A stretch of 37,013 bases of DNA, from the IMG/VR virus record IMGVR_UViG_2531839666_000012; one strand, 5' to 3'. Origin of the DNA: a virus. Its lineage: Duplodnaviria > Heunggongvirae > Uroviricota > Caudoviricetes. Shown here in pieces: positions 1 to 17,501 of the stretch. The stretch's first letter is position 1. Each line of letters begins with the position of its first letter. The translations under genes were made by a program, and so were the position numbers. Under the pieces are notes generated by a model that searched no databases, was not told where the DNA came from, and saw only the letters and a list, made by a program, of their open reading frames with translations.

Positions 1-368
1 TCCACCAGCAACAAAATCCACCACAGAAAAAAACGGTTGTCAGTATCGCCGTTGATCCGGAGTCTCCTGAATCGTTCATGAGGCGGCCTAAACGTCGCCG
101 TTGGGTTAATGAGAAATACACGCGCTGGGTAAAGACACAGCCGTGTGCGTGTTGTGGTAAGCCAGCTGACGATCCACATCACCTGATTGGTCATGGTCAG
201 GGGGGAGTGGGAACAAAGGCCCACGATATTTTCACGCTACCGTTGTGCCGGGAGCACCACAACGAACTTCATGCAGACCCGCTGAAGTTTGAGAAAAAGT
301 ACGGCTCTCAGATTGAGTTAATTTTTCGTTTTCTTGATCACGCCTTTGCGACTGGCGTGCTCGGGTAA
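1..368 (+). CDS. DUF968-family prophage protein (YdfU-like), C-terminal part; 5' end lies outside the window
   Basis: Frame is open from position 3 with no stop before the ATG at 78; Cys/His-rich motif CACCGKPADDPHH...CREHH; sits immediately upstream of rusA and Q as in Qin/Rac-type prophages. Confidence 0.55.
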   Translation, partial: HQQQNPPQKKTVVSIAVDPESPESFMRRPKRRRWVNEKYTRWVKTQPCACCGKPADDPHHLIGHGQGGVGTKAHDIFTLPLCREHHNELHADPLKFEKKYGSQIELIFRFLDHAFATGVLG

Positions 369-380
369 AAGAGGTGACTG

Positions 381-743
381 ATGCTCATAGATTTGGTTTT
401 ACCTTACCCGCCGACGGTGAACACTTACTGGCGACGCCGTGGCAGCACATATTTTGTATCAAAAGCCGGGGAGCGTTATCGCCGGGCAGTGGCGCTTATT
501 GTTCGCCAGCAGCGACTGAAATTAAGCCTGTCCGGACGGCTGGCAATAAAAATTATTGCAGAGCCACCGGATAAGCGCCGCCGTGACCTGGACAATATTC
601 TGAAAGCACCGCTGGATGCGCTGACGCACGCGGGGTTGTTAATGGACGATGAGCAGTTTGATGAAATCAATATTGTACGTGGCCAGCCAGTATCTGGTGG
701 ACGGCTGGAGATAAGAATTACAGAGGTGGGTGTGCATGAATAG
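381..743 (+). CDS. rusA: RusA-family Holliday junction resolvase
   Basis: 120 aa; N-terminal LPYPPTVNTYW, catalytic RRRDLDN motif and C-terminal GGRLEIRITE match recalled E. coli RusA; SD AGAGGTGA 7 nt upstream of ATG 381. Confidence 0.85.
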   Translation: MLIDLVLPYPPTVNTYWRRRGSTYFVSKAGERYRRAVALIVRQQRLKLSLSGRLAIKIIAEPPDKRRRDLDNILKAPLDALTHAGLLMDDEQFDEINIVRGQPVSGGRLEIRITEVGVHE

Positions 744-1425
744 CCAGTATTTACAGTTTGTTCGTGAGCAACTCATGATTGCCACTGCGGATCTCAGTGG
801 GTCGACAAAAGGCCAGCTGGAAGCCTGGCAGGAAAATGCCCTGTTCGATACAGGGCGTTACAGACGTAAAAAAATTCGTTACCGCGATGAGGTAACCGGA
901 AAAATGATCACGCGGGATAATCCACCGATCCCGGGCAAACAATCACTGGCGAAAGGGACGTCAATTGCTCTGGTCAGTCCGGTTGAGTTTGCAACATCAT
1001 CGTGGCGGCGTGCCGTTCTGGAACTGGAAGAACATCAGAAGGCGTGGTTACTGTGGTGCTACAGTGGAAATGTTTGCTGGGAAGATCAGGTCACCATAAC
1101 ACAGTGGGTGTGGAGTGAATTTAAAACTCAGTCCGGCTCCAGAAAAATTGCAGTGAAAACGCTGGAGCGTGTGAAGAAGTTGATCTGGCTGGCGGCACAG
1201 GATGTCAGAGGATGGGTTACCGGGTGTGAGGTCTACCAGAGACAGGAGCTTGCCAGACTGTGTGGAGTTAAGCCTGATAACTGGAGCCATAATTATGCGA
1301 ACTACTGGCGTGAGATGTGCGATATTTTTAAGCGCCTCGATAGAGAATCCTTGATTTGCTCCGTGAAAATAAGAGCGCAACAAAAAGCGACCTTTTCACG
1401 ACGAGATATTGCAAAAGTCAATTAA
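736..1425 (+). CDS. Q: Late-gene antitermination protein Q (Phage_antitermQ-like)
   Basis: About 230 aa ORF directly after rusA and before terminators and late genes; SD GAGGTG 7 nt upstream of ATG 736; family assignment is by synteny and general resemblance, not a verified alignment. Confidence 0.6.
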   Translation: MNSQYLQFVREQLMIATADLSGSTKGQLEAWQENALFDTGRYRRKKIRYRDEVTGKMITRDNPPIPGKQSLAKGTSIALVSPVEFATSSWRRAVLELEEHQKAWLLWCYSGNVCWEDQVTITQWVWSEFKTQSGSRKIAVKTLERVKKLIWLAAQDVRGWVTGCEVYQRQELARLCGVKPDNWSHNYANYWREMCDIFKRLDRESLICSVKIRAQQKATFSRRDIAKVN

Positions 1426-1485
1426 ATCGCGTATGTTTCGTATAAATCTGATATTTTGCCGATTTTGTACGCGATGGCAAAGTAA

Positions 1486-1514
1486 GAAAAAACCACCGCC
1501 AGGTGGTTTTTTTT
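1486..1514 (+). terminator. Rho-independent terminator (candidate tR') downstream of Q
   Basis: Hairpin aaCCACCgccaGGTGGtt followed by an 8-T run. Confidence 0.5.
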
Positions 1515-1637
1515 ATGTCCGAAAATCTCGTCAGTACAGTAAACGCGCTGGTGGTGGTGAATACCGGTCTTTCAGCTTGCTGGCTTTTTTGACAAGAGTT
1601 ATTGGTGTGTCACGTTAACCGGAAAAGGGAAAAAGAC

Positions 1638-1835
1638 ATGCTGAAACAGCAGGATATGACAGAAACCGCCAGAGTGGTGTTTAATGAATTAAGTGCCACC
1701 GAACCGGCGACAGTCGGGGAGATTGCGCAGAATACTTATCTTTCACGTGAACGCTGCCAGTTAATACTGACCCAGCTTGTTATGGCGGGTCTGGCAGACT
1801 ATCAGTTCGGTTGTTACAGACGCCTTCAGTCCTGA
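1638..1835 (+). CDS. Small hypothetical protein (65 aa)
   Basis: ATG at 1638 with SD AAGGGA 7 nt upstream; terminator immediately after the stop; no recognised family. Confidence 0.4.
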   Translation: MLKQQDMTETARVVFNELSATEPATVGEIAQNTYLSRERCQLILTQLVMAGLADYQFGCYRRLQS

Positions 1836-1849
1836 AGGCTTTTTTATTT
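1822..1849 (+). terminator. Rho-independent terminator
   Basis: Stem GCCTTCAg/tGAAGGC with loop tcc, followed by TTTTTTATTT. Confidence 0.5.
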
Positions 1850-1985
1850 GTGGTAAATGGGCGGCTGGTGGGTGTTAGGGGCACTCACCAGCCATCTGCT
1901 CATGCGTCCGGATCACAAGCAAACCTCAGGCCCACTGCTTTGCGCAAAAGCAGAATGAGCCTATCAGAGACAGGCTTAATGATCC

Positions 1986-3044
1986 ATGCTTAATACTGTA
2001 AAAATATCCAGTTGTAAGTTAATCAACGCCGACTGCCTGGAATTTATCCGGTCGTTACCCGAAAATTCTGTTGACCTGATAGTCACGGACCCGCCGTACT
2101 TTAAAGTGAAGCCTGAGGGCTGGGATAACCAGTGGAAGGGCGACGATGATTACCTGAAGTGGCTGGACCAGTGTCTGGCGCAGTTCTGGCGGGTGCTGAA
2201 ACCTGCCGGAAGTCTTTACCTGTTCTGTGGCCATCGCCTGGCATCTGACATTGAAATCATGATGCGTGAACGCTTCAGTGTGCTGAACCATATTATCTGG
2301 GCGAAGCCGTCCGGACGCTGGAACGGGTGCAACAAGGAAAGCCTGAGGGCGTATTTCCCCGCCACAGAGCGCATTCTGTTCGCGGAACATTATCAGGGGC
2401 CGTATCGTCCGAAAGATGCCGGGTATGAGGCGAAGGGCAGGGCACTGAAACAGCATGTGATGGCCCCGCTGATTGCTTACTTTCGTGATGCACGTGCTGC
2501 CCTGGGGATAACGGCAAAACAGATTGCTGATGCCACAGGAAAGAAAAACATGGTGTCGCACTGGTTCAGTGCCAGTCAGTGGCAGCTACCGGACGAAAGC
2601 GATTATCTGAAATTACAGGCGCTGTTTGCCCGGGTGGCAGAAGAGAAGCATCAGCGCGGAGAACTGGAAAAGCCACATCACCAACTGGTCAGCACATACA
2701 GTGAACTGAACCGACACTATACGGAACTGCAGAGTGAATATAAGCATCTGCGGCGGTATTTCGGTGTGACGGCGCAGGTGCCGTACACCGATGTGTGGAC
2801 GCATAAACCGGTGCAGTACTATCCCGGGAAACATCCGTGCGAAAAACCGGCAGAAATGCTGCAGCAGATAATCAGCGCGAGCAGTCGTCCGGGTGACCTG
2901 GTTGCAGATTTTTTCATGGGGTCGGGTTCGACAGTCAAAGCAGCGATGGCGCTGGGGCGTCGTGCAACTGGCGTTGAGCTGGAGACTGAACGTTTTGAGC
3001 AGACGGTCAGGGAAGTTCAGGATTTAGCCAGTCAGAACGGATGA
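1986..3044 (+). CDS. DNA methyltransferase, N6_N4_Mtase (beta-class) family
   Basis: 352 aa; motif IV IVTDPPYF near the N-terminus and motif I FFMGSGST near the C-terminus (order IV then I). Confidence 0.8.
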   Translation: MLNTVKISSCKLINADCLEFIRSLPENSVDLIVTDPPYFKVKPEGWDNQWKGDDDYLKWLDQCLAQFWRVLKPAGSLYLFCGHRLASDIEIMMRERFSVLNHIIWAKPSGRWNGCNKESLRAYFPATERILFAEHYQGPYRPKDAGYEAKGRALKQHVMAPLIAYFRDARAALGITAKQIADATGKKNMVSHWFSASQWQLPDESDYLKLQALFARVAEEKHQRGELEKPHHQLVSTYSELNRHYTELQSEYKHLRRYFGVTAQVPYTDVWTHKPVQYYPGKHPCEKPAEMLQQIISASSRPGDLVADFFMGSGSTVKAAMALGRRATGVELETERFEQTVREVQDLASQNG

Positions 3045-3084
3045 TATTGCAGGATTAGTTACGTACCGTTATTATCCTGCGCCC

Positions 3085-3160
3085 GGCCCTTTAGCTCAGT
3101 GGTGAGAGCGAGCGACTCATAATCGCCAGGTCGCTGGTTCAAATCCAGCAAGGGCCACCA
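3085..3160 (+). tRNA. tRNA-Ile2 (anticodon CAU, lysidine type; ileX/ileZ-like)
   Basis: 76 nt cloverleaf: acceptor GGCCCTT/AAGGGCC, anticodon loop CTCATAA, T-loop TTCAAAT, encoded CCA; near-identical to recalled E. coli ileX. Confidence 0.8.
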
Positions 3161-3167
3161 TCACATA

Positions 3168-3244
3168 CCGCCATTAGCTCATCGGGATAGAGCGCCAGCC
3201 TTCGAAGCTGGTTGCGCGGGGTTCGAGTCCTCGATGGCGGTCCA
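3168..3244 (+). tRNA. tRNA-Arg (anticodon UCG)
   Basis: 77 nt; acceptor CCGCCAT/ATGGCGG, anticodon stem CCAGC/GCTGG with loop CTTCGAA, T-loop TTCGAGT, encoded CCA. Confidence 0.75.
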
Positions 3245-3257
3245 TTATCTGTACACT

Positions 3258-3334
3258 GCGTTGTTAGCTCAGCCGGACAGAGCAATTGCCTTCTAAGCAA
3301 TCGGTCACTGGTTCGAATCCAGTACAACGCACCA
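3258..3334 (+). tRNA. tRNA-Arg (anticodon UCU, argU-like rare-codon tRNA)
   Basis: 77 nt; acceptor GCGTTGT/ACAACGC, anticodon stem ATTGC/GCAAT with loop CTTCTAA, T-loop TTCGAAT, encoded CCA. Confidence 0.8.
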
Positions 3335-3419
3335 CACTTATTTTTCCTGGCTCGCTTTTGTGGGCCTTTTTTGCCTCCGCGCCACGCCCGGCGCATATCA
3401 ACCACAGAGCCTTTCACAA

Positions 3420-4355
3420 ATGGTTTTTCAGGAGTCCAATAATCGCGATGTCGCCAGAAAATACGCAGAGTACATCACGTCCGTTCCTTTGCGTCGGTTT
3501 GTCGCTGAAAAAGTGCGGGAATATTGTGGTGATCTGCCCCTGAGTATTTTTGATGGTGCGTGTGGCTCCGGGCAACTGGAGCAGTTTCTCACGGTGGGAA
3601 GTCTGTATGCTGTGGATATACAGGCCTCTCCGTTGGTGCATATCCCGGATAATTTCCCGGATGCCACAGTGAAGACGGTCAATGAAAATTTCTTCAACGC
3701 CATCGATGATGTCAGTGACACGGACACGTTCGATTGTGTCATCATGAATCCGCCTTTTTCGCTACAGTACAAAGCACAGAGCGCGGATATCAGGGAGAAG
3801 ATTTCAGCGATGATGCCTTATAAAAAGACCTCCGGTGTTCTGGATGACGCGTTTTATGTTCTGGCGAGCATGAAGGCAAGATTTTCATTTTTTTTGTGCT
3901 TTCCCGGGGTTGGTTACAGGCGTGGTGAGCTGGCAATGCGTCAGTATTTTGGCAACCGCGTTGTTGAGTTGGTTCAGATTTCAGGCGGGTTCGCTGATAC
4001 ATCGGTTTCTGTATTATTCGTCATTATTGATAACGAAAAGCAAAGCGATGATGTTGTTGTTTATGGCGTCGGGTTTAATGGGGAAACTTGCAAAAAGTCA
4101 GCGCCGGTGACGGAGAAGATTAACACAGACAACTGGAACAGGCCGTACATTGCTGAAGAGAAGGAGGTCATTGACATTGTACAGGTGACGGCTGAGTTGC
4201 TTGTAAGGCAAACAAGAAGACGGAAACTTGAAGATGAGCATAACGCCTTTGTGTGGTCCTTAATGAGTGATGATCAGCGGACGGAGGTTTCCCGTTTTCT
4301 GTCAGTGCACGGTTTGTTTTTTGATGCCGGTTCAGGTTGTGTGCACATACGTTAA
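3420..4355 (+). CDS. N6-adenine DNA methyltransferase (gamma-class), no adjacent restriction enzyme
   Basis: Motif I FDGACGSG then motif IV VIMNPPFS; start uncertain (ATG 3420 or GTG 3360, both lack a clear SD). Confidence 0.7.
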   Translation: MVFQESNNRDVARKYAEYITSVPLRRFVAEKVREYCGDLPLSIFDGACGSGQLEQFLTVGSLYAVDIQASPLVHIPDNFPDATVKTVNENFFNAIDDVSDTDTFDCVIMNPPFSLQYKAQSADIREKISAMMPYKKTSGVLDDAFYVLASMKARFSFFLCFPGVGYRRGELAMRQYFGNRVVELVQISGGFADTSVSVLFVIIDNEKQSDDVVVYGVGFNGETCKKSAPVTEKINTDNWNRPYIAEEKEVIDIVQVTAELLVRQTRRRKLEDEHNAFVWSLMSDDQRTEVSRFLSVHGLFFDAGSGCVHIR

Positions 4356-4404
4356 ATCTGGTGCCGGTCGCTGGTTGCCGGTGTCGTGATGATTGTCTTC
4401 CTGT

Positions 4405-4660
4405 TGCCCCGAAAATTTTAAATGTCTCACAATTCAGACGGTTGACAGTTGTCTGATTTGCGGGGAGTTTGTTAAAAGAAACTGGCATGGTGAATCCCCC
4501 TGAGCGGAGGGGCATATCAGCGACAGGTGTTTGGTTACATCCCTTATCCTTTCTGTGCGGGTTCAGGTGCTGATACTGAACTCACCGGGAGGCACCCGGC
4601 ACCATGCGCATGATGATACAGATACGCAGCGTCAGCCCCTCTCCGGAGGGGCTTTTCTGT
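4405..4660 (+). repeat. Hairpin-rich noncoding element, copy A (candidate sRNA gene)
   Basis: Shares with copy B a CA-rich box CTCACAATTCAG, TTGACA/TTGAAG -35-like hexamer, GC hairpin CCCCCTGAGCGGAGGGG, box CTGAACTCACCGGGAGGCACCCGGCA and terminator hairpin AGCCCCTCtccgGAGGGGCT+TTTT (4634-4660). Confidence 0.5.
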
Positions 4661-4892
4661 GCCGGATACATCACAGTTTCTGGAACCTTGGGTACTACAG
4701 TATCAGTCAGGGTGCTATATTTTCAGATGTGATGAAAGCCTGTCAGCAGGCAGGGCGTATCGGAAATGACCCAGTAGAGAAAACGTTGACTCAGATACCG
4801 GTGCTGAGTTACCGGGAAACCGGCATCACATGACCGCTATCCTTCCAGGCCCGTCCGCTCCGGTGGGCCTTTTTACTGCAGAAAACAGGTTC

Positions 4893-5148
4893 CCCGTTAA
4901 ATGCTATGTTGCTCACAATTCAGTCAGTTGAAGGTTGTCTTCCCGACTGAGAATTTGTTAAAAAATTTCTGCATGATGAATCCCCCTGTGCGGAGGGGCG
5001 GCTGGTGTACGGTATGGTCTCTGATGATCGTTAGCGAGAATGACGCGGGTTCGGTGGCACCGGGCTGAACTCACCGGGAGGCACCCGGCATCATGCAATG
5101 AACGGTACATAGCGCTACTCCAGCCCCTCTCCGGAGGGGCTTTCTTAT
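4893..5148 (+). repeat. Hairpin-rich noncoding element, copy B (candidate sRNA gene)
   Basis: Paralogue of copy A about 486 bp downstream with the same conserved boxes and terminator hairpin (5122-5148); a minus-strand terminator (GCCCGCAT/ATGCGGGC after an A-run) follows at 5152-5181. Confidence 0.5.
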
Positions 5149-5378
5149 GGATAAAAAAAGCCCGCATGGTGAGATGCGGGCAGCAAGGAATAAACAACAA
5201 AACGTGAAGTAATCAATTTTTCAGCTGGCGAATAATACCCGACAGTAATCACTCTGCGCAACTGCGCGGCCTTTTTCGTATTGCGGGCTGTAGTCTTCCT
5301 TCTGTCATTGTCCTGTAACTTCCGGACTTCAGCCCGCCCCTTATCTGACTCACAACATTATCCCGACCGGGAGGATTC

Positions 5379-6855
5379 ATGGCATTTAAACACTATGACG
5401 TGGTCAGGGCGGCGTCGCCGTCAGACCTTGCGGAGCGACTGACTCAAAAACTGAAGGAGGGGTGGCAGCCATTTGGCAGCCCGGTGGCCATCACGCCTTA
5501 TACCCTGATGCAGGCCATTGCGGCGGAAGGTGATGTCACCACACCTGTGGTGGTGAAGCCGTCGGATGGAGAAGGCACAGTTATCAGCGCCACCAGCGAC
5601 CCAGAGTATTACTACGTGATTACGCTGGCTGGCCAGTCAAACAGCATGGCATATGGTGAAGGCCTTCCGCTGCCGGAGACATATGACCGTCCGGACCCGC
5701 GTATTAAGCAGCTGGCGCGTCGCAGTACAGTGACACCGGGAGGTACTCCCTGTAAATATAACGACATCATTCCGGCAGACCATTGTCTTCATGATGTTGA
5801 AGATATGACCAGGCTAAAACCCCCCAAAGCTAAAGATGCAGAATACGGTTGTGTTGGCCAGGGTTTGCATATTGGTAAGAAACTACTGCCATTTATCCCT
5901 GCTAATGCAGGTATTCTGCTGGTCCCTTGTGGACGTGGCGGATCAGGCTTTAGTACCGGAACAGAAGGACAGTATTATGAAGCCTCTGGCGCAATCGACG
6001 CATCATCAAAATGGGGGCTTGGGACACCTCTATATAAAGATCTGGTTGCCAGAACCAAAGCTGCATTAGACAAAAACAAAAAGAACGTATTTCTTGGCGT
6101 TGTCTGGATGCAGGGTGAGGCAGATATGGCTGCCGGAAAACATGCAGAACACAATGCACTTTTCCTGAAAATGGTTGAAGGTTTCCGCACTGAGTTAGAG
6201 AAATATGATGCTCAATGCGTATATGGTAGTGCTGCGAAAGTCCCCTGGATTTGCGGCGATACCACGTATTACTGGAAAACCAAATACGCGTCTCAATATG
6301 AAGTTGTGTACGGTGGTTACAAAGGGAAAACGGATAAGGCTATTTATTTTGTTCCGTTTATGACGGATGAAAATAATGCAAATGTTACAACCAATAAGCC
6401 CGAGGAAGACCCGGATATTGAAGCTATTGGATATTATGGCTCCAAATGGCGTGATAGTTCAACAACATGGACGTCACAGTACAGAGATAGCCATTTTAGC
6501 TCATGGGCTCGTCGAGGTATCGTTTCGGATCGACTGGCAACAGCAATTGTAACCTATGCAGGTAAATCATCTGCCTTTGTGAATGGTATTACAGAAGTAA
6601 CAGCACCGGAAGAGGCGCCAACATCTTCTTCATCGCCAGCTTCTGAAGCTCATAATGAAGAAAATACGGTTGCCACTTCGGAGTCTGTCATTCTCTACGA
6701 TGCCAAAAAAGCTTCGGACAATCAGCTGAAACCTTATGGCTGGGACGGTATGGATGGCAGACGCACACTGGTTGATGACAGCGGCAATAAAGCTCTGCGA
6801 ATTGAGAAAAATAACAGCGCGAAATCCTGGTCAATGTACTGTGATATTGCTGCAG
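5379..6855 (+). pseudogene. nanS-p: nanS-p (prophage sialate O-acetylesterase), N-terminal part, interrupted by an IS
   Basis: DUF1737-like N-terminus, SGNH/sialate esterase motifs ITLAGQSNSMAYGEG and WMQGEAD; SD GGGAGG before ATG 5379; frame runs into the IS left end at 6856 and stops 29 nt inside it. Confidence 0.8.
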
Positions 6856-6909
6856 TGAATCGCCCCGGGAATCCTGGAGACTAAACTCCTTGAGAGAGAG
6901 GTAAACAGG

Positions 6910-7236
6910 ATGACTAAAAATACGCGCTTTTCCCCTGAGGTCCGTCAGCGGGCCGTTCGTATGGTTATCGAAAGCCAGAATGACTATGACTCGCAGTGGG
7001 CGGCCATCAGCTCCATCGCCCCTAAAATCGGCTGTACGCCTGAGACCCTGCGTACCTGGCTGCGTCAGTATGAGCGCGATGCCGGTGCAGGTGACGGCGG
7101 ACTGAGCACCACTGAACGTCAGCGTCTGAAGGAACTGGAGCGTGAAAACCGCGAACTGCGCCGCAGCAACGATATCCTGCGCCAGGCTTCCGCGTATTTT
7201 GCGAAGGCGGAGTTCGACCGCCTGTGGAAAAAATAG
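6910..7236 (+). CDS. IS3-family transposase OrfA (HTH/leucine zipper)
   Basis: 108 aa, [19 protein letters not shown]... matches recalled IS629/IS1203 OrfA; ends at an A6 slippery run (7228-7233). Confidence 0.85.
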
Positions 7237-8123
7237 CGCCTCTGGTGGATACCCTGCGTGGTGCGCACGGGGTCGGACCGGTATGCCACGAGCTGGCTGT
7301 CGCCCCGTCAACGTATTACCGGCATCGTGCGCATCAACGGCATCCGGATAAACGCAGTCAGCGGGCACAGCGTGATGACCTGCTGAAGCCGGAGATACAG
7401 CGCGTGTACGATGAAAACCACAGCGTGTACGGTGTGCGCAAGGTCTGGCGCCAGTTGTTGCGTGAGGGGGTGACCGTGGCCAGGTGCACAGTAGAACGGC
7501 TGATGAAGGTGATGGGGCTTGCCGGTGTGCGCCGGGGTAAAAAGGTCCGCACCACAGTCAGCCGGAAAGAAGCCGCTGCGGGTGACCGGGTGAACCGCCA
7601 GTTCGTGGCAGAACGCCCCGACCAGCTGTGGGTGGCTGACTTCACGTATGTGAGCACCTGGCAGGGCTTCGCTTACGTGGCGTTCATCATCGATGTGTTC
7701 GCCGGCGTCATTGTGGGCTGGCGGGTCTCATCGTCGATGAAAACGACGTTCGTGCTGGATGCACTGGAGCAGGCGCTGTGGGCCCGTCGCCCGTCGGGCA
7801 CCATCCATCACTCAGATAAGGGGTCACAATATGTGTCGCTGGCATACACTCAGCGGCTTAAGGATGCAGAGTTGCTGGCGTCAACCGGCAGCACAGGCGA
7901 CTCATATGACAACGCGATGGCGGAGAGCATCAACGGACTTTATAAAGCGGAGGTGATACATCGTAAGAGCTGGAAAAACCGCGCCGAAGTGGAACTGGCC
8001 ACACTGACGTGGGTGGACTGGTACAATAACCGACGGTTGCTGGAACGACTGGGTCATATCCCGCCGGCAGAAGCGGAAAAGGCATATTACGCTTCCATCG
8101 GAAATGGTGGTCTGGCAGCCTGA
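7224..8123 (+). CDS. IS3-family transposase OrfB (DDE catalytic domain)
   Basis: 299 aa in the -1 frame relative to orfA, overlapping its 3' end; likely made as an OrfAB fusion by programmed -1 frameshift. Confidence 0.85.
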
Positions 8124-8165
8124 GTTCACAGATAAAACACTCTCCCGGAAAACCGGGGCGGTTCA

Positions 8166-8650
8166 CAGACAAGGCAAAACTGTTACTGGAAAAAGGCGGG
8201 GAAATTGCTGTCCGGTTTAAAATCCCTGAAAACGTCAATCTTGAAACAACCAGAAACAAGTATGCCTTTGGTTTGTACTGGCGAATAGCGGAATGGCCGG
8301 GTGAGGGTGGTGAAGGCTATCTGAGTTCTTTCTTTGTCCAGACAGATAAAGCCAGTATTGATGTTGCATACCATCATACAGGTAATCAACAAAAAGAACT
8401 TGGCACGTTTGGCGCATTCGACCATGACTGGCATACGCTTGCATTTAAATTTAAGGGCAGTAACAGCATTAATGTTACTCCGGTGTTTGATGATGTGGAT
8501 GGACAGGCGTTTGACCTGGTGAAATGGGCCAATACTGCTAATGAACTCAACAGGTTTGTCATTACGGATATTACAGGTACTGCTGAAACTTACCCTGTAC
8601 TTATTGATACGGTGGAAGTTAAAGCAAACAAAGCTGGAGCAGCCGCATAA
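8166..8650 (+). pseudogene. nanS-p: nanS-p C-terminal fragment displaced by the IS
   Basis: Frame is open from 8168 to the stop at 8650 and, after removing the IS plus one CAG copy, is in frame with the 5379 ORF (offset 1313 = 2 mod 3). Confidence 0.65.
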
Positions 8651-8779
8651 TTGCTAAAAAAAGCCGCCAGCGGCAGGAATGGAAGCTGGCGGCTGGTAAA
8701 ACGACCATGATGACACCGAAGTCTGCGGTGTTTTTCTACAAAAATAAGTAAATCATGTCAACTATCACGGTGAGAAACC

Positions 8780-8962
8780 ATGACATTTCTGAACCAGTTA
8801 ATGCTGTACTTCTGTACGGCGGTCTGTGTGCTGTATCTTCTTTCGGGTGGGTACAGGGCAGTGCGCGATTTCTGGCGCAGGCAGATTGATAAAAGGGCCG
8901 CTGAGAAAATCAGCGCCAGTCAGTCAGCCGGAAGCAAACCCGAAGAGCCCATTACTCCTTAA
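8780..8962 (+). CDS. Hypothetical small membrane protein (60 aa)
   Basis: ORF with a hydrophobic N-terminal segment (LMLYFCTAVCVLYLLSGG); no family recognised. Confidence 0.35.
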   Translation: MTFLNQLMLYFCTAVCVLYLLSGGYRAVRDFWRRQIDKRAAEKISASQSAGSKPEEPITP

Positions 8963-8987
8963 TAACCCCTTTCAGCGAGAAAATCCT

Positions 8988-9233
8988 ATGTCAGAAGTAA
9001 AACCCCTGGTCACTGCTGAAGCAGTGAAGGAAGTCCTGCGCTCTGAAGAAGTCCTGAGCGCACTGAAACAGAAACTCCGCCAGAACCTTGAGTCGCGTCT
9101 TGATGCAGAAGTGGAGGCCATTCTGGATGAACTGCTGGGCGCACCGGCTGTTCCGGAGCCGGAAGGCATTGCGGGTGACGGGAGTGCTTCAGATGGCGGT
9201 GAACCCACACCCGACAGCGACATGATGATGTAA
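8988..9233 (+). CDS. Hypothetical acidic protein (81 aa)
   Basis: ATG 8988 preceded by GAGAAAA; acidic coiled-coil-like composition; immediately upstream of the holin. Confidence 0.45.
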
Positions 9234-9309
9234 GCATGCGCAAGGGACCATCGGTGTGTGCCGGTGGTCTTTATATTGTTGTGAGCTTCCGGATTGCGGG
9301 AGACGGGGT

Positions 9310-9526
9310 ATGTACCAGATGGAAAAAAGTCACAACAGGTGTGTCATACACCACGTCAGCGGTGGGAACGGGCTACTGGTTCCTGCAGTTGCTGGACAGG
9401 GTTTCCCCGTCTCAGTGGGCGGCAATAGGCGTGCTGGGGAGTCTGCTGTTTGGTCTGCTGACGTACCTGACGAACCTGTATTTCAAGATTAAAGAAGACC
9501 GTCGTAAGGCGGCGCGGGGAGAGTAG
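9310..9526 (+). CDS. S: Phage 21 S-type pinholin (class II holin), frame-disrupted at an A6 run as sequenced
   Basis: C-terminal 60 aa ([51 protein letters not shown]) match recalled S21; dual-start ATGs at 9310 and 9319 (MYQMEK) are in the +1 frame relative to the body and join it only if the A6 run 9323-9328 is A5; the track ORF 9236-9526 is the same body with a non-homologous N-terminal extension. Confidence 0.7.
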
Positions 9527-9529
9527 ACG

Positions 9530-10171
9530 ATGAACCATGAAGAAATGAATCAGCGCTTCAGTCGTCTGGAAAATGAAATTGCTGAACTGAATAAAAAACT
9601 GTCGGTGCTGATGCCTTCTGAAGATGCAAACAAACGCTGCGATGAGCAGTTTGCGGCGTTTTACGATGATTGCATCAAAATTGCTCGCAGGACCTTTGCG
9701 AAGATTTTGCAGGAAAAGTTTTTACCGGCCGCATTGTCAGAAAAGTACTCCATTACGGTTAAAAGTGCCGGAGAGGAAGGCAATAAGCGTTATTTTATTG
9801 CGTCTGCACCGGATAAAGACCAGGAATGGGAGTGTAACCGGCCATCCTTTGTTGTATCCGGTGATGACGGGAAAATCACCATATCAGAAAATGGAAAAGT
9901 AACACCGCCATCGCACCAGCACAGTGAGACGCTCATTGAATTTGCCATTGATTACCTGAAGAACAATAAAAAACAGGGGCTGATGAAGCGCATTGGTCGC
10001 TGCATGGGATATCTGCAGCTGGCGGCAGAGATTGAAGCACTTGCCAGTGGTGCAGACAGGGATGCTGCGGTGCGGGAGGGTCTTCTTTGTGATTTCAATA
10101 CGCCACCCTTTAAGAAAGAGCCTGATGGCTGGATCCAGCCGGGGCTGACTTATCTCAAATGGCGCATATAG
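9530..10171 (+). CDS. Hypothetical protein (213 aa) inserted between holin and endolysin
   Basis: SD GGGAG upstream of ATG 9530; predicted N-terminal coiled coil; lower GC than flanking lysis genes; no family recognised. Confidence 0.6.
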   Translation: MNHEEMNQRFSRLENEIAELNKKLSVLMPSEDANKRCDEQFAAFYDDCIKIARRTFAKILQEKFLPAALSEKYSITVKSAGEEGNKRYFIASAPDKDQEWECNRPSFVVSGDDGKITISENGKVTPPSHQHSETLIEFAIDYLKNNKKQGLMKRIGRCMGYLQLAAEIEALASGADRDAAVREGLLCDFNTPPFKKEPDGWIQPGLTYLKWRI

Positions 10172-10718: not shown

Positions 10719-10842
10719 TAAGTTCTCCTTATTGAGGTTATCAGCCATCCCTCTTTTGTTACATGTGCCAGTGCCCACCACTGGCAGGCTGAAGACTTAA
10801 CATATCCAGGGATTCGGAACCGATAAATCCTGATAAATATCC

Positions 10843-11376
10843 ATGAACACCAAAATCAAATACGGCCTGTCGGCTGCCGTTCTGGCGCTGATTGCCGCAG
10901 GTGCGCCTGCGCCTGAAATCCTCGACCAGTTTCTTGACGAAAAAGAAGGTAACCACACCACGGCATACCGTGATGGTGCGGGTATCTGGACCATCTGCCG
11001 AGGTGCCACCCGGGTGGATGGTAAGCCTGTGATTCCTGGCATGACGCTGTCGAAGGGGAAATGCGACCAGGTTAACGCCATTGAGCGTGATAAAGCGCTG
11101 GCATGGGTGGAGAAAAACATCAGAGTGCCACTGACCGAACCCCAGAAAGCGGGGATCGCGTCATTCTGTCCTTACAACATTGGCCCCGGTAAGTGTTTCC
11201 CGTCGACGTTTTATAAACGAATTAATGCAGGCGATCGCAGGGGAGCGTGTGAAGCGATTCGCTGGTGGATTAAGGACGGTGGCAGAGACTGCCGTATCCG
11301 CTCAAATAATTGTTATGGTCAGGTATCCCGTCGTGACCAGGAGAGCGCGCTGGCGTGCTGGGGTATCGACAGATAA
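10843..11376 (+). CDS. R: SAR endolysin (T4-lysozyme-type muramidase, phage 21 R-like)
   Basis: N-terminal signal-anchor-release segment KYGLSAAVLALIAAGAPAP, then catalytic-region motif EGNHTTAYRDGAGIWTICRGAT. Confidence 0.85.
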   Translation: MNTKIKYGLSAAVLALIAAGAPAPEILDQFLDEKEGNHTTAYRDGAGIWTICRGATRVDGKPVIPGMTLSKGKCDQVNAIERDKALAWVEKNIRVPLTEPQKAGIASFCPYNIGPGKCFPSTFYKRINAGDRRGACEAIRWWIKDGGRDCRIRSNNCYGQVSRRDQESALACWGIDR

Positions 11377-11465
11377 GCAGAATATTTTGCTGAAAAATGA
11401 CGTTGACTAACGCGGACGGATAACACGAAATCCTGCGAACTGGCAAAACCTAAGTGAATAAAAGT

Positions 11466-11500
11466 AAAAACCCCGTTTGTTGGCAGCAAGCGGGGTTTTG
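11466..11500. terminator. Bidirectional rho-independent terminator
   Basis: Stem CCCCGtttg/caagCGGGG flanked by an A5 run upstream and T4 downstream. Confidence 0.45.
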
Positions 11501-11731
11501 TGTTTCTGACCTTGGATAAGGCAAGGGAGAACATGGAAAAGTATAAACGAATTCTGTTGAGGTTGACTATGAAAAACGGCCTTGAACTGAAAGCGCCAGA
11601 GTAACTGATGACATCAGCAGAGCGCTGGCTTTTGCTATTAAGTGGGTGGCGGTTGGTATCGCTGTGTCTCCGATACTGTATGGGCTGGCAAAACTGGTCA
11701 TTGCGTTGAAATCGTGAAGGGAGGATTAAGC

Positions 11732-11863
11732 ATGTCAGACAAACTCATAATGCTGGCGAAGATCCTCTGTGTAATCGTCGGCATTTCATTTTCACTAATG
11801 CTGGTTGCTATTTGCTTTTCCACTGCCTGGCGCGTCTTAACTCTGTCAGGGCTGGTGGGGTGA
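11732..11863 (+). CDS. Hypothetical small membrane peptide (43 aa)
   Basis: ATG 11732 preceded by GGGAGGA; single predicted TM helix ILCVIVGISFSLMLVAICF; ends 8 nt before the methyltransferase start. Confidence 0.35.
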   Translation: MSDKLIMLAKILCVIVGISFSLMLVAICFSTAWRVLTLSGLVG

Positions 11864-11870
11864 CAGAAAC

Positions 11871-12806
11871 ATGAAATGTGTACTGTATTCCGGTGACTGT
11901 CTTGATGTTATGCCTTCATTACTACCGGGAAGTGTTGACCTGGTTTTATGTGACCCGCCGTATGGAACCATTAAAGGGCTTACACTCCGTACATGGGATA
12001 AGAGTACGACAGCATGGGACGATGCCTTAAATCCTGAAGATATTTTCACACAGTGCGAACGACTGCTGAGGGTGGGCGGTGTGCTGGTCATGTTCAGCCA
12101 GGAGCCGCATACAAGCACGATGATTACTCTGGCGGATAAAAACCTGCCGTTTTTATATCGTATGGTGTGGAAGAAGGAGCATTTCCCCAACCCGCTTTCA
12201 GTAAAAAAAGCACCTGTATCTTTATTCGAGGATATCGTTGTTTTCCGGAAAAAATATGACAGTGAGAAAAACCACCCGCTGAGGGAGTACGCCCGAAATA
12301 TCCTTTCTTTCATTGGCCACAGGACAGACAAGGAAGTTAACAAAACACTGGGGCACCGTCGGGCAGAGCATTTTTTTTGCGTGAACACACTCCAGTTTTC
12401 CCTCTGCTCACAGGATACGTATAACGAGTTAATTAAACGCTTTGGTATCGACCGTATGCCGGGTTTCATGACATATGAAGAAATGCGCAAAGTGAATTCC
12501 GGTTACGGCACTGTGGTTTTTAATCTCCCTCAGGGGAAAAAATACCGCGCAAATATTCTGGAGTACGCGCGGGAGCGGGAGCGATGGCATCCGACCCAGA
12601 AGCCAGTTGCATTACTGGAAGAGCTGATTCAGACGTACAGCAACCCTGGCGACAGGGTACTGGATTTTACTATGGGGAGTGGTTCAACAGGTGTTGCATG
12701 TATCCGGACGGGGAGACGGTTTACCGGAATAGAAAAGGATGACCGGTATTTCGCTGTTGCAAAAAAACGTCTGGAAAAAGAAAACAGTGAAATGGTGGTG
12801 ATATGA
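11871..12806 (+). CDS. DNA methyltransferase, N6_N4_Mtase (beta-class) family, inserted between R and Rz
   Basis: Motif [10 protein letters not shown] near the N-terminus and motif [10 protein letters not shown] near the C-terminus. Confidence 0.8.
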
Positions 12807-13270
12807 ACCGTGTTCTGTGTGTGGTGATTATTGTCCTGCTGGTGGCCTGTGGTGCGCTTAGTCTGGGGCTGAATCATTACCGCGATAACGCCATCACCTA
12901 CAAAGCGCAGCGCGATAAAAAAGCCAGAGAGCTGGAGCTGGCAAACGCAACCATTACTGATATGCAGGTGCGCCAGCGCGATGTTGCTGCGCTCGATGCA
13001 AAATACTCGAGGGAATTAGCCGATGCGAGAGCTGAAAATGAAACTCTGCGTGCTGATGTTGCCGCTGGTCGTAAGCGCCTGCGGGTTAAAGCCACCTGTC
13101 CAGGCTCCGTGCGTGAAGCCCCCACCACCTCCGGCGTGGATAATGCAACCGGCCCCCGACTGGCAGACACCGCTGAACGGGATTATTTCATCCTCAGAGA
13201 ACGGTTGATGACAATGCAGAAGCAGCTGGAAGGGGCGCAGGAATATATCCGCACTCAGTGTATTAGCTAG
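12803..13270 (+). CDS. Rz: Rz inner-membrane spanin (i-spanin)
   Basis: Closely matches recalled lambda Rz ([16 protein letters not shown]..., [40 protein letters not shown]); N-terminal TM helix. Confidence 0.9.
13038..13208 (+). CDS. Rz1: Rz1 outer-membrane lipoprotein spanin (o-spanin), embedded in Rz in the +1 frame
   Basis: [15 protein letters not shown] lipobox signal then proline-rich [27 protein letters not shown], matching recalled lambda Rz1. Confidence 0.8.
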
Positions 13271-13293
13271 TATTTTTGTTATCCGGAGAATGC

Positions 13294-13518
13294 ATGAAGA
13301 AATTACTGGTAACCGTAAAGTCTTTTCAGGGAACAATTCCGTTCCGTATTTTGCAGTGTGGTCGTGTTCTTGTTGAAGGTTCGTTCAGTGGTAAATGTAC
13401 GCAATTACACTCCCGGACCTTTCAGGTGAATGCCACGAATGAAGAGCTAACCGTTGAGTGTACGATGAATGCCGCTAAATGCCGCATGGTATCCGCTGCA
13501 TTACAGCCAGTGTGTTGA
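13294..13518 (+). CDS. Hypothetical protein (74 aa)
   Basis: ATG 13294 (MKKLLVTVKSF...) with GGAG upstream; no family recognised. Confidence 0.4.
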   Translation: MKKLLVTVKSFQGTIPFRILQCGRVLVEGSFSGKCTQLHSRTFQVNATNEELTVECTMNAAKCRMVSAALQPVC

Positions 13519-13856
13519 GCGACCTTATTATCCATGCGCGGTATTGTCGCCGTATTCCTGCATTAACAGAGACCGCAGCCCGACCGGGAGACTCCTCTGC
13601 GCGAGTGTGCGGGGATAATCAAAAACGATACACACCGGGGTTTACCGCGTTAACGGAGCGCGGCGTTGTCCCCTCATGGTCGCTGGTCCGGTGCGATGGT
13701 GGAAGAAACCGGACGATGTGTTACCTCGCAAGCTCTGTTATGTCATGTGTCTGATTTGTGATTTAAGTCGGATAATTGTCGTTGCCATTAAGCAGAGGAT
13801 TGATGACCGACAGGGTGGCATTGTTAGAATAAGACTTATTCTTATCTGTGCCGGGA

Positions 13857-14189
13857 ATGAAAATGAAAAGAAATCTTCCGTTAATTATTTTGTTGTCTTC
13901 TCTGGTTATGGGCTGTACGCAACATAAAACAGATATGCCCCGACAGTTGGTTAAGGCATTACCACAATATCCGGCCTATGCAGCGGCAAATTATATAAAG
14001 GGACGGGTTGATGTGAAGTTTGATATTGGTGCTGATGGTACTGTCACCCGAATTGAGTTTATCCGTTCAGAGCCGCACCATCTGTTTGATGAGCAGGTTG
14101 TAAAAGCGATGGCAAAATGGCGATTTGAGAAGGACAGGCCGCGTAAAGGCGTGAAGAAAACGTTTATCTTTAGTCCTTCTGCACCCTGA
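13857..14189 (+). CDS. Putative lipoprotein with TonB C-terminal-like domain
   Basis: Signal peptide with lipobox LVMGC; C-terminal region resembles the TonB_C fold (VDVKFDIGADGTVTRIEF...HHLFDEQVVKAMAKWRF); start could be 13848, 13857 or 13863. Confidence 0.5.
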   Translation: MKMKRNLPLIILLSSLVMGCTQHKTDMPRQLVKALPQYPAYAAANYIKGRVDVKFDIGADGTVTRIEFIRSEPHHLFDEQVVKAMAKWRFEKDRPRKGVKKTFIFSPSAP

Positions 14190-14320
14190 TTATTTCATCA
14201 GAAATTAATTATCACTCTGTTGTTATTCTGTACATCCCGGCTGGGTAAGTCTTGTTCCGCCGGGTATGAAGATGAAATATTGTTGGAGGACAGTGGGTAC
14301 CTGCTCCTGTAACCGAACGT

Positions 14321-14521
14321 TCATTTCTCGTTATTTGTCATGCTGGCCGGGCGCAGGTGCGTTGCATCTGTTGCCAGCCTTCTCCGGCAGGCTTCAATAA
14401 CCCACGCTGAAAAGTTACCGGACCCTTTATGCTCAAGGGCGATGTTGATCTGTTCAATCATGTGATTGGGGAAACGGATATTGCGGGTTGTGGTTCTGCG
14501 GGTCCGGTTTTTCGATGACAT
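14321..14521 (-). CDS. YlcI/YnfO-family (DUF3950) small prophage protein
   Basis: MSSKNRTRRTTTRNIRFPN..IEQINIALE.KGSGNFSAWVIEACRRRL matches recalled DLP12 YlcI / Qin YnfO; minus-strand SD AAGGAA. Confidence 0.6.
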   Translation of the reverse strand: MSSKNRTRRTTTRNIRFPNHMIEQINIALEHKGSGNFSAWVIEACRRRLATDATHLRPASMTNNEK

Positions 14522-14562
14522 ATTTATTTCCTTTACTGATTGCCTTATGACGGGGATTTTAC

Positions 14563-14928
14563 ATGGCTGAGCTTCGTACACTCCAGAGCAGAATCAAAAC
14601 ACTGAATACCCGACGGGTGAATATTCTGAAGGGTGAACAGCGTCGTGTCAGTGGCAGTGCACGTGTTTCCCTCAAGCGTCATATCTGGCTCAGGGATGCC
14701 GGGCAGTGCTGTCTCTGTGGTCGTGTGGTTGACCTCTGTGACAGTGAACTCGATCACCGAATTGCACTTCAGTTCGGTGGTGGTAATGAGGAGACGAATC
14801 TCTGGACGCTCTGTACCGAATGCCATCGACAAAAGTCTGCTCGTGAAGCGGCGGGTGGTATGCCGGACCCGACACTGCCGGAGGTGTCCGGAGGTAGTGG
14901 CAGAGCGGACGACATCATCGGACTGTAA
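14563..14928 (+). CDS. HNH endonuclease (packaging-associated)
   Basis: CxxC...DHRIALQFGG..NLWTLCTECH zinc-finger HNH signature; sits directly upstream of the cos region and terminase, as in HK97-like cos phages. Confidence 0.8.
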   Translation: MAELRTLQSRIKTLNTRRVNILKGEQRRVSGSARVSLKRHIWLRDAGQCCLCGRVVDLCDSELDHRIALQFGGGNEETNLWTLCTECHRQKSAREAAGGMPDPTLPEVSGGSGRADDIIGL

Positions 14929-15218
14929 CCCGACCCGGGGGGGGTATCATCCGGCGTAAAAAACGATCGCTCCGGACACCGCGCCCCCTCTCACGCAGAG
15001 AAAAAATTCCCGTTTCAGGTCAGTTAACATGTTAACTGGCTGCACGGGCATTTTTGCAGTTTTTATCTTTATTATTCAGTTTGTTGCGCGGAAAAAATGT
15101 TAACAGGCTTTTTCAGCAAATGTTAACCAGGCAGCAGTTAACATTTGCGGCATGAGACGCCGGGAAAAATGGGCTGAACCATACCCGGCTGAGTGCATTC
15201 TGGACCCTGGAGGAGGCT
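14929..15218. promoter_or_regulatory. Candidate cos / terminase-binding region
   Basis: G8 run at 14937-14944 followed by four GTTAAC-containing repeats (CAGTTAACATGTTAACTGG, AATGTTAACAGG, AATGTTAACCAGG, CAGTTAACATTTG) between HNH and terS. Confidence 0.35.
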
Positions 15219-15755
15219 GTGCTGACAACGCAAAAACGAAAATTTGCGCTGGCGCTCATGTCCGGGAAAAACAAAACAGCGTCAGCCATTGCCGCCGGTT
15301 ATTCGGCGAAGACAGCCAGGGTTAAAGGCTCGCAGCTGGCAAAAGATCCGGAGGTGCTCGCGTTTATAGCCCGTAAGCAGTGCGAGACGGTAGAGGTGGA
15401 TGAGGTTCCTGTTTACCGGCAGAAAAAATCAGAGCAGGAGGATAAACCCCGTCGCCGTGAGGCGGCTGCAATACCACAGCCGGACGAAACAAATCCGGAG
15501 ATGCCACTGCCCGTGGTGATATCTCCTGGTATTGAGTATATGGATGACGGTCTTCCCGATCCGGTGAAAGCGATGGGGCGTCTTCTGGTGGAGAACATTA
15601 ATACCGACCCCAGGCTGGCGCTGGATGTGGCTTATAAGCTGGCACAGTTCACGCACCACAAAAAAGGGGATGCCGGTAAAAAATCGGCAAAAGGTGACGC
15701 GGCGAAAAAAGCGGCTAACCGTTTTGCGGTGCCACCACCCCCCGACTGGTGGTGA
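15219..15755 (+). CDS. Terminase small subunit
   Basis: GTG 15219 with SD AGGAGG 8 nt upstream; N-terminal region resembles P27-family TerS; directly precedes terL. Confidence 0.65.
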   Translation: MLTTQKRKFALALMSGKNKTASAIAAGYSAKTARVKGSQLAKDPEVLAFIARKQCETVEVDEVPVYRQKKSEQEDKPRRREAAAIPQPDETNPEMPLPVVISPGIEYMDDGLPDPVKAMGRLLVENINTDPRLALDVAYKLAQFTHHKKGDAGKKSAKGDAAKKAANRFAVPPPPDWW

Positions 15756-15777
15756 ATAATGATAATGAGGGCAGCGG

Positions 15778-16083
15778 ATGATACCTGTGTGGAGCACGGC
15801 CTGCCCGGACTGGGCAGAGCGCCTGAAAAAGGGGCTGTCGATTATTCCGGCTCCGATTTACCCGGACCAGGCCGCACATGCCCTGGCGATTTTTAAACAA
15901 CTGCGGATTGTGGATGCACCGGGCAGCCCGACGTTCGGGGAGTCCTGTGCACCGTGGGTGTTTGATCTGGTGGCTGCCCTGTTTGGCTCCTACGATGCGC
16001 AGACCGGTGTACGCCATATAAAGGAAGTGTTCATTCTGATACCCAAAAAAACAGCAAGTCCACGCTGGCTGCCGGGATCATGA
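15778..16083 (+). CDS. Terminase large subunit, N-terminal segment (frame broken at an A7 run)
   Basis: Ends ...ILIPKKTASPRWLPGS*; the -1 frame across the A7 run at 16045-16051 reads the Walker A P-loop NSKSTLAAGIMM... and continues into the next ORF. Confidence 0.8.
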   Translation: MIPVWSTACPDWAERLKKGLSIIPAPIYPDQAAHALAIFKQLRIVDAPGSPTFGESCAPWVFDLVAALFGSYDAQTGVRHIKEVFILIPKKTASPRWLPGS

Positions 16084-17438: not shown

Positions 17439-17464
17439 CCCTGTTCACCCTGTAACCATCATGG

Positions 17465-17489
17465 ACCGCTGCGGCGGTTTTTTTATTTT
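17465..17489 (+). terminator. Hairpin plus T-run between terL and head genes
   Basis: Stem ACCGC/GCGGT with loop tgcg, followed by TTTTTTTATTTT. Confidence 0.35.
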
Positions 17490-17501
17490 CAGGAGGCTGA
17501 T

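Follow-up and report, generated by a model that had tools for sequence, protein, structure and literature searches.

Expression of stx2 in Shiga toxin 2 (Stx2) phages depends on read-through mediated by the late antiterminator Q. Two sets of prophage-borne adenine methyltransferases have been described: M.EcoGII, a non-specific enzyme from an O104:H4 prophage that is reported to be silent in lysogens, toxic under constitutive expression and active on RNA as well as DNA (PMC5778455), and Hia5, Hin1523 and Nma1821, which are non-specific, carry a Dam-related FxGxG motif, a recognition domain and DPPY, and are encoded at the mom position of Mu-like prophages (PMC3299994). Here we analyze a 37,013-nucleotide (nt) stretch of DNA, IMG/VR record IMGVR_UViG_2531839666_000012 (hereafter the window), which covers the late half of an Escherichia coli prophage of lambdoid, Stx-phage-like type, and focus on the gene at 3420–4355 (+ strand) that occupies the position of stx. 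We find that this gene is intact and is predicted, from its sequence and modeled structure, to encode a stand-alone gamma-class DNA N6-adenine methyltransferase of 311 residues, belonging to a small, phage-restricted family of ≈300-residue proteins that resemble the catalytic core of the type I methyltransferase HsdM. The cargo slot is a known one in which this gene is new and seldom found, and the finding, though rare, is of an ordinary kind.

An open reading frame (ORF) spanning 3360–4355 is present and intact in the window, and the ORF finder, some annotations and a first-pass annotation made from the sequence alone all begin the gene at GTG 3360. This codon lies in the 3' arm of a terminator-like hairpin (3349–3366), 57 homologues in a 58-sequence alignment start within a few residues of the Met encoded at 3420, and one RefSeq record annotates the 311-residue form; for these reasons we take the gene to be 3420–4355 and discard the earlier start. 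In an E. coli homologue of 61% identity, the position equivalent to 3420 is taken by a GTG with an AGGAGG ribosome-binding site before it. The product carries FDGACGSG (motif I) at residues 44–51 and NPPF (motif IV) at residues 110–113, 58 residues further on, in the gamma order that the first-pass annotation had recognized. Both motifs fall among the 36 columns that are invariant in the 58 family members, and the window protein keeps all 36; no inactivating lesion is found in its catalytic motifs. The frame is uninterrupted in 12 of 12 carrier E. coli genomes and in six IMG/VR contigs, and comparison with a 79%-identical homologue gives a nonsynonymous-to-synonymous rate ratio (dN/dS) of 0.10 at a synonymous divergence (dS) of ≈1.2. 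The gene is under purifying selection.

Sequence and structure comparisons both place the product among DNA methyltransferases. The phrog_6380 profile, named "DNA methyltransferase", gives a full-length match (E = 9.5e-79; residues 1–294 on profile positions 8–350 of 382), and among Protein Data Bank sequences EcoR124 HsdM is matched best, in its catalytic domain (E = 4e-5), by an alignment that begins at chain residue 291 and query residue 99 and covers the motif IV–VIII region. In an AlphaFold model (mean pLDDT 92.9), a Rossmann core ending at about residue 235 is followed by a helical hairpin (253–296) and a short beta hairpin. All of the top 50 Foldseek matches are DNA N6-methyladenine methyltransferases or restriction-modification (R-M) enzymes (PacII M, HsdM, CamA, M.BseCI and BpuSI), the predicted fold also resembles that of M.TaqI, and the catalytic domain as modeled agrees in fold with gamma-class DNA methyltransferases of solved structure. 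The family numbers 596 proteins in a 5.8-billion-sequence collection and 110 clusters (50% identity) among 1.84 billion representatives, nearly all of 270–350 residues, with relatives encoded on 333 IMG/VR viral contigs; most relatives have a precomputed match to the Pfam N6_Mtase family, PF02384. RefSeq already annotates the product as an S-adenosylmethionine-dependent DNA methyltransferase, and phrog_6380 is catalogued yet uncharacterized. In the open-access literature, we found no paper describing an HsdM core lacking the specificity subunit S, a methyltransferase at the stx locus, or phage-encoded pairs of a methyltransferase (M) and a half-size S.

Compared with the HsdM subunits of EcoR124I (7bst), Streptococcus thermophilus (3lkd) and Vibrio vulnificus (3ufb), the window protein has the same gamma motif order, the NPPF motif and an alignable motif IV–VIII region, and many members of phrog_6380 are likewise paired with an HsdS-type subunit. 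It differs from these subunits in length (311 vs. ≈500 residues), in the absence of hsdS and hsdR nearby, and in its location in a phage late operon, and a Pfam scan of the product finds no match to the HsdM_N domain. Without an N-terminal domain, S and R partners or an equivalog-level score, the protein is not a bona fide HsdM. Nor is it a member of the Hia5/Hin1523 group, a possibility that we considered and rejected, because those enzymes have DPPY near residue 190 and alpha order, compared to NPPF at residue 110 and gamma order here (PMC3299994). No homology to Hia5, Hin1523 or Nma1821 extends beyond the common fold, and the likeness is one of functional analogy only, that of a late orphan adenine methyltransferase replacing other late cargo (PMC3299994). 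M.EcoGII and M.EcoGI are again prophage-borne orphan adenine methyltransferases, one of which has a close homologue encoded at 1986–3044 in a late transcription unit common to the gene studied here. M.EcoGII is unlike our protein in being of the beta class, in having a four-helix helix-turn-helix recognition domain (PMC11551740), and in the frequency of its gene (35% vs. 0.2% of genomes).

The phage methyltransferases of phrog_6380 share with the window protein full-length homology at 40–50% identity, equal length, the invariant residues and, always, a temperate-phage context. A scan of 91 loci encoding relatives reveals that 57 have an ORF of ≈180 residues directly 3' of the methyltransferase gene, the start of which overlaps, with few exceptions, the stop codon of the methyltransferase gene. 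Its product is a half-size HsdS, as shown by PF01420 matches in two representatives (E = 7e-17 and 4e-24) and by a profile in the others, and such pairs occur in the Streptococcus-type prophages Javan169 and Javan350, in Fusobacterium phage FNU_1P and in Mannheimia phage 587AP2. From work on truncated HsdS proteins, pairs of M and half-S are expected to form M2S2 enzymes that recognize symmetric bipartite sites. In a neighbor-joining tree, the window protein forms a clade, group A, with the other proteins from E. coli, with those from Providencia and with several from metagenomic phages, and S is absent from every group A locus examined. The C-terminal helix of group A has the motif RRRKLEDE..F(V/I)..LM, which is also found in another S-less clade and differs from the C-terminus of the S-coupled clades. 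A hidden Markov model built from six half-S proteins of relatives was searched against all six-frame ORFs of the window and 97 loci, and detects no S subunit in the window or in any group A locus, with the limit that so narrow a model could let a very divergent S escape. RefSeq annotates neither an S subunit nor a restriction endonuclease in the 25-kb twin locus, a 99.97%-identical prophage, which agrees with the first-pass statement that no restriction endonuclease adjoins the gene. The methyltransferase encoded at 3420–4355 is an orphan.

The S-less clade spans several genera and is conserved in length, and since it has no S, its members must bind DNA alone, possibly as a dimer through the clade-specific C-terminal helix. 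Charge tells us nothing on this point; we considered it as a sign of direct DNA binding and found it uninformative, with an isoelectric point of ≈5 in all members, with or without S. The family as a whole is flagged as a small, uncharacterized set of phage HsdM-like cores, some paired with a half-size S and others not, the S-less members of which raise the question of how a type I-like catalytic core reaches DNA on its own.

We next consider the genomic position of the gene. A Stx2d phage aligns with the window at 95% identity as far as 3383, and the match resumes at ≈4913, at the second of two copies of an STnc100-family small RNA (sRNA), with stx2AB lying between these blocks in the Stx2d phage; the gene is therefore bracketed at the very place where stx2AB stands, as had been claimed. 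It does follow the tRNA genes directly, although the block upstream consists of Q, a methyltransferase gene and the tRNA genes rather than of Q and tRNA genes only, as first described. A blastn comparison with the non-Stx prophage of strain ABU 83972 finds homology at 1493–3415 (96%) and 4411–5944 (86%), and inspection of the junction sequences shows that homology stops 4 nt before ATG 3420 and restarts 55 nt past the stop codon, with TerB-family and DUF3927 genes held between the two blocks. These borders define a gene-precise exchange slot, in which the cargo cassette of the window (3416–4410, + strand) differs from that of TerB-type prophages on a common backbone. The slot is bounded by the tRNA block and a terminator on one side and by the STnc100 sRNAs and a nanS-p-type esterase gene on the other, both STnc100 copies being backbone in common with the ABU 83972 prophage. 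The terminator-like hairpin (GGCTCGC-TTTT-GTGGGCC, then TTTTTT; 3349–3372, + strand, terminator scan) is kept in Stx2 phages and in the locus of the 79%-identical homologue. One backbone can therefore carry any of at least three cargos at the stx position: stx2AB, TerB/DUF3927 or the methyltransferase. The TerB-family and DUF3927 genes are found in the slot in two non-Stx prophages, that of ABU 83972 and one other, at positions 3666–4258 of those loci.

As cargo, the methyltransferase gene resembles stx2AB and TerB/DUF3927 in occupying the identical slot, with flanks 95–96% identical and the same expected regulation by Q read-through, and it differs from them in that a toxin or host-fitness gene is replaced by one for a nucleic acid-modifying enzyme that presumably benefits the phage. 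The locus of the 79%-identical homologue has tRNA-Arg, the hairpin and the leader upstream as in the window, an esterase gene downstream and a Q of the PF06530 type, and a 49%-identical homologue lies between a PF03589 antiterminator gene plus an STnc100 sRNA and a holin gene. The E. coli members occupy the late-operon slot of stx, whereas other members of phrog_6380 are found in the early or nin region, with the Providencia and Pasteurella relatives in the nin region. The leader of ≈50 nt (3367–3415), from the T-run to the ATG, is near-identical in the locus of the 79%-identical homologue, the coding regions being ≈19% diverged at the DNA level; the same leader is common to TerB-type prophages and is therefore backbone sequence. 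In a metagenomic prophage remnant, a group II intron D1–D4 fragment (RF02001, 136 bits; positions 7703–7874 of that locus) lies between an STnc100 copy and a methyltransferase homologue.

The gene is found in only 12 of 5426 complete E. coli genomes (0.2%), has no DNA match among deposited E. coli phages, and yields just 10 distant protein matches among 50,697 phage records. We see here no sign of a new kind of system or of a virulence role. This locus is of value mainly in marking modular exchange at the stx position and in pointing to an uncharacterized enzyme family: stx2b, TerB/DUF3927 and a methyltransferase are alternatives on near-identical backbones, in what is a general gene-precise exchange slot, and exchange at this slot bears on the gain and loss of toxin genes between resident prophages.

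How might such a gene be expressed and used? A crude scan finds no sigma-70-like promoter before the gene on the + strand, and three terminator-like hairpins lie upstream, at 1495, 1822 and 3349, the last of them 50 nt away. From this architecture, the position equivalent to stx2 and the silence of M.EcoGII in lysogens, we infer that expression is late and Q-dependent, and we count in favor of this the location of the relatives at 79% and 49% identity, which are also encoded just 3' of antiterminators, of the other types noted above. Transcription would then be confined to induced cells, in which antitermination by Q carries it from pR' through the terminators at ≈1495, 1822 and 3349, as for stx2; the enzyme would methylate adenines of replicating phage DNA before packaging; and progeny DNA would enter the next host already modified against restriction that is sensitive to adenine methylation. 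Of the two roles that the first-pass annotation had put forward, late-phase self-protection fits the architecture and is the best reading, in line with other late orphan methyltransferases of phages, while an epigenetic role in lysogens does not fit it and is not favored. We assign a probability of roughly 0.6 to this reading as a whole, i.e., that an orphan HsdM-like adenine methyltransferase is carried as slot cargo, is expressed late under Q and protects phage DNA.

Several observations weigh against it. To our knowledge, type I HsdM is not known to bind DNA by itself, and library scans reveal no domain match past about residue 235 that could represent a target-recognition domain in the same chain; the domain search proposed by the first-pass annotation thus comes back empty, and the target is not predictable from domain searches since the protein is an HsdM-like core without a specificity subunit. 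The score against PF02384 is only marginally above the cut-off (21.7 vs. 20.4 bits), and that against the NCBIfam hsdM equivalog is far below it (25.6 vs. 242.75 bits). The Shine-Dalgarno sequence before ATG 3420 is weak, and a second adenine enzyme looks redundant in a phage that already encodes a non-specific adenine methyltransferase of the M.EcoGII type. Finally, a "DNA adenine methyltransferase" of another Stx phage methylates 16S rRNA (PMC10810198).

A bolder proposal, which we hold only tentatively and as unlikely, is that the S-less clade represents an autonomous minimal HsdM core that homodimerizes via the C-terminal helix and methylates adenine with little or no specificity or at a very short motif; capture of host HsdS subunits may be a rarer alternative. 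If true, this would add a third, gamma-class and independent route to promiscuous adenine methylation in phages, beside those of beta-class M.EcoGII and alpha-class Hia5, and a protein of ≈300 residues might make a compact tool enzyme.

In a different reading of the same data, the protein is an HsdM-type subunit that works only with an S supplied in trans, by a host type I system or another prophage, and either copies host methylation onto phage DNA or disturbs host type I complexes. HsdM binds S through its C-terminal helices, and the helical hairpin of our model lies where HsdM has these helices, a positional match taken from a non-significant alignment; the closest structures are HsdM subunits, and a half-S gene lies directly downstream in 57 of the 91 scanned loci. 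Group A is set apart from this pattern, lacking S at every locus examined and having a C-terminal helix motif of its own, unlike that of the S-coupled clades, and identity to real HsdM is only 13–19%. Type I R-M families are moreover diverse, and host genera differ in those they carry, which makes a single conserved hijacking interface unlikely. We consider dependence on a borrowed S improbable.

We regard as similarly improbable the idea that the enzyme does not act on DNA at all and instead modifies RNA (rRNA, tRNA or mRNA) or protein during lytic growth. NPPF/NPPY motifs are not unique to DNA enzymes and are found in RNA and protein amino-methyltransferases, the product has weak matches to PrmC and to the MTS small domain, one relative has been named "predicted RNA methylase" by the Joint Genome Institute, and the gene adjoins tRNA genes. 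Precedents exist in the Stx-phage enzyme that acts on 16S rRNA (PMC10810198) and in RNA methylation by M.EcoGII (PMC5778455). On the other hand, the region past motif IV aligns specifically with HsdM, and most of the relatives examined are paired with a DNA-specificity subunit.

Expression in lysogens, with the enzyme exerting epigenetic control over genes of the host or the prophage, appears very unlikely. Other cargo in the slot can have its own promoter, as stx1 and stx2 can, and the near-identity of the ≈50-nt leader to that of the 79%-identical homologue, despite a coding dS of ≈1.2, could hide a regulatory element. This leader is, however, part of the backbone, which TerB-type prophages share at 96% identity until 4 nt short of the ATG, and the lack of a recognizable promoter, the terminator 50 nt upstream and the silence in lysogens of M.EcoGII, the homologue of the adjacent gene product (PMC5778455), all point the other way. 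Just as unlikely is a functionless passenger, i.e., an S-less remnant of an M and S pair that hitch-hikes in the slot, for although the lack of S and of a recognizable recognition domain, the weak ribosome-binding site, the rarity (12 of 5426 genomes) and a frameshift in the adjacent M.EcoGII-type gene of one carrier, which shows that methyltransferase genes here do decay, would suit it, the frame is intact in all 12 genomes and six IMG/VR contigs, dN/dS is 0.10, every family-invariant residue is kept, and the S-less clade persists in several genera at conserved length.

The other two methyltransferase genes of the window, at 1986–3044 and 11871–12806 (both + strand), are beta-class, as first annotated, each with a match to PF01555 (E = 7e-44 and 3.9e-33, respectively). 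The gene at 1986–3044 is intact and encodes a 352-residue protein of the M.EcoGI/M.EcoGII type, with DPPY at residues 35–38 and FFMGSGST near the C-terminus, that is identical to M.EcoGII at 332 of 348 residues (95%), a comparison made with a PDF-derived sequence (PMC11551740, Table S1) in which a few positions may be optical character recognition errors. Genes of this type are found in 1914 of the 5426 genomes (35%), in up to seven copies, and also in the matched Stx2 phage records. The third methyltransferase (311 residues) is encoded between the lysozyme gene (10843–11376) and Rz (12803–13270), with a stop that overlaps the Rz start by 4 nt, and comparison with a prophage of strain 2012EL-2448 delimits its cassette as 11871–12835. 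It occurs in nine of the 5426 genomes and has no DNA-level match in phage records; the protein family is common in phages, with 599 records. The same cassette is present in the lysis region of the Stx2b prophage L097, so that a modification enzyme is found inside a lysis cassette there too.

The first-pass annotation had stressed three methyltransferases in 12 kb of late DNA. All three do lie within 10.8 kb, but they do not form a unit: the first is common and the other two are independent cassettes. Strain 2012EL-2448 carries the two rare genes in two different prophages. One, 98.3% identical to window 1487–5797, lacks the third methyltransferase and combines the gamma-class gene in the slot with an M.EcoGII-type gene that is annotated as frameshifted; in the other, an Stx2b phage 98.3% identical to window 10834–23467, the slot is occupied by stx2bAB and the third methyltransferase gene lies between those for lysozyme and Rz. 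The window prophage is therefore a mosaic of these modules, and the trio is a product of recombination between resident lambdoid prophages rather than a co-evolved unit. The two rare genes share seven genomes (of 12 and nine), often in different prophages, which is far above the expectation for independence and may reflect related strains or selection for the combination. In the first of the 2012EL-2448 prophages (7622–9705 of that locus), an ORF for a PemK/MazF-family toxin lies between Q and the frameshifted M.EcoGII-type gene.

The remaining features of the window conform to a late lambdoid operon, and the prophage of strain FHI_NMBU_11 is 99.97% identical over window 1–6855 with an identical gene order. 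On the + strand, DUF968 and RusA genes lie 5' of Q (730–1425; PF06323 Phage_antiter_Q, E = 7.8e-84), and a terminator-like hairpin with a T-run just 3' of Q (1495–1514, terminator scan) is the presumed tR' of the late operon, by analogy with lambdoid architecture; homology to Stx2 phages begins at 1489, approximately at this hairpin. The same scan places a further hairpin at 1822. Three tRNA genes (3085–3334, + strand; ARAGORN, Rfam and the RefSeq annotation of the FHI_NMBU_11 prophage) have the anticodon CAU and the identities Arg-UCG and Arg-UCU, the first being called Met by ARAGORN and Ile by RefSeq. Past the slot, the two STnc100-family copies (RF02076; 4456–4662, 134.9 bits, and 4942–5152, 168 bits) are followed by the nanS-p-type sialate O-acetylesterase gene (5379–8650; Pfam DUF1737 and SASA), a holin gene, an ORF with no assigned function and the lysozyme gene; terminase and head genes follow Rz, and all of these lie on the + strand.

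The two STnc100/PasD-type copies have diverged, with ≈80% of columns identical in a 315-column alignment, and a common GC-rich terminator hairpin closes each of them. Two copies are likewise present in the TerB-type prophage of ABU 83972, and the aligned Stx2d phage shows a single matching region. The esterase gene is split by a 1310-bp IS3-family insertion sequence (6856–8165, with borders set by comparison with the FHI_NMBU_11 prophage) that contains orfA (6910–7236), orfB (7224–8123) and an ALIL frameshift pseudoknot (7191–7307). This element is flanked by a 3-bp target duplication, CAG, and is absent from the otherwise 99.9%-identical FHI_NMBU_11 prophage; a search of complete E. coli genomes finds the window's junction of esterase gene and insertion sequence in none of them. 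The ORF at 21012–22397, in the head-gene region, contains a 162-nt (54-codon) tandem repeat at 21177–21928, in 4.6 copies that are 92% matching, and the stretch of L097 that matches this repeat region is annotated as a frameshifted portal protein gene.

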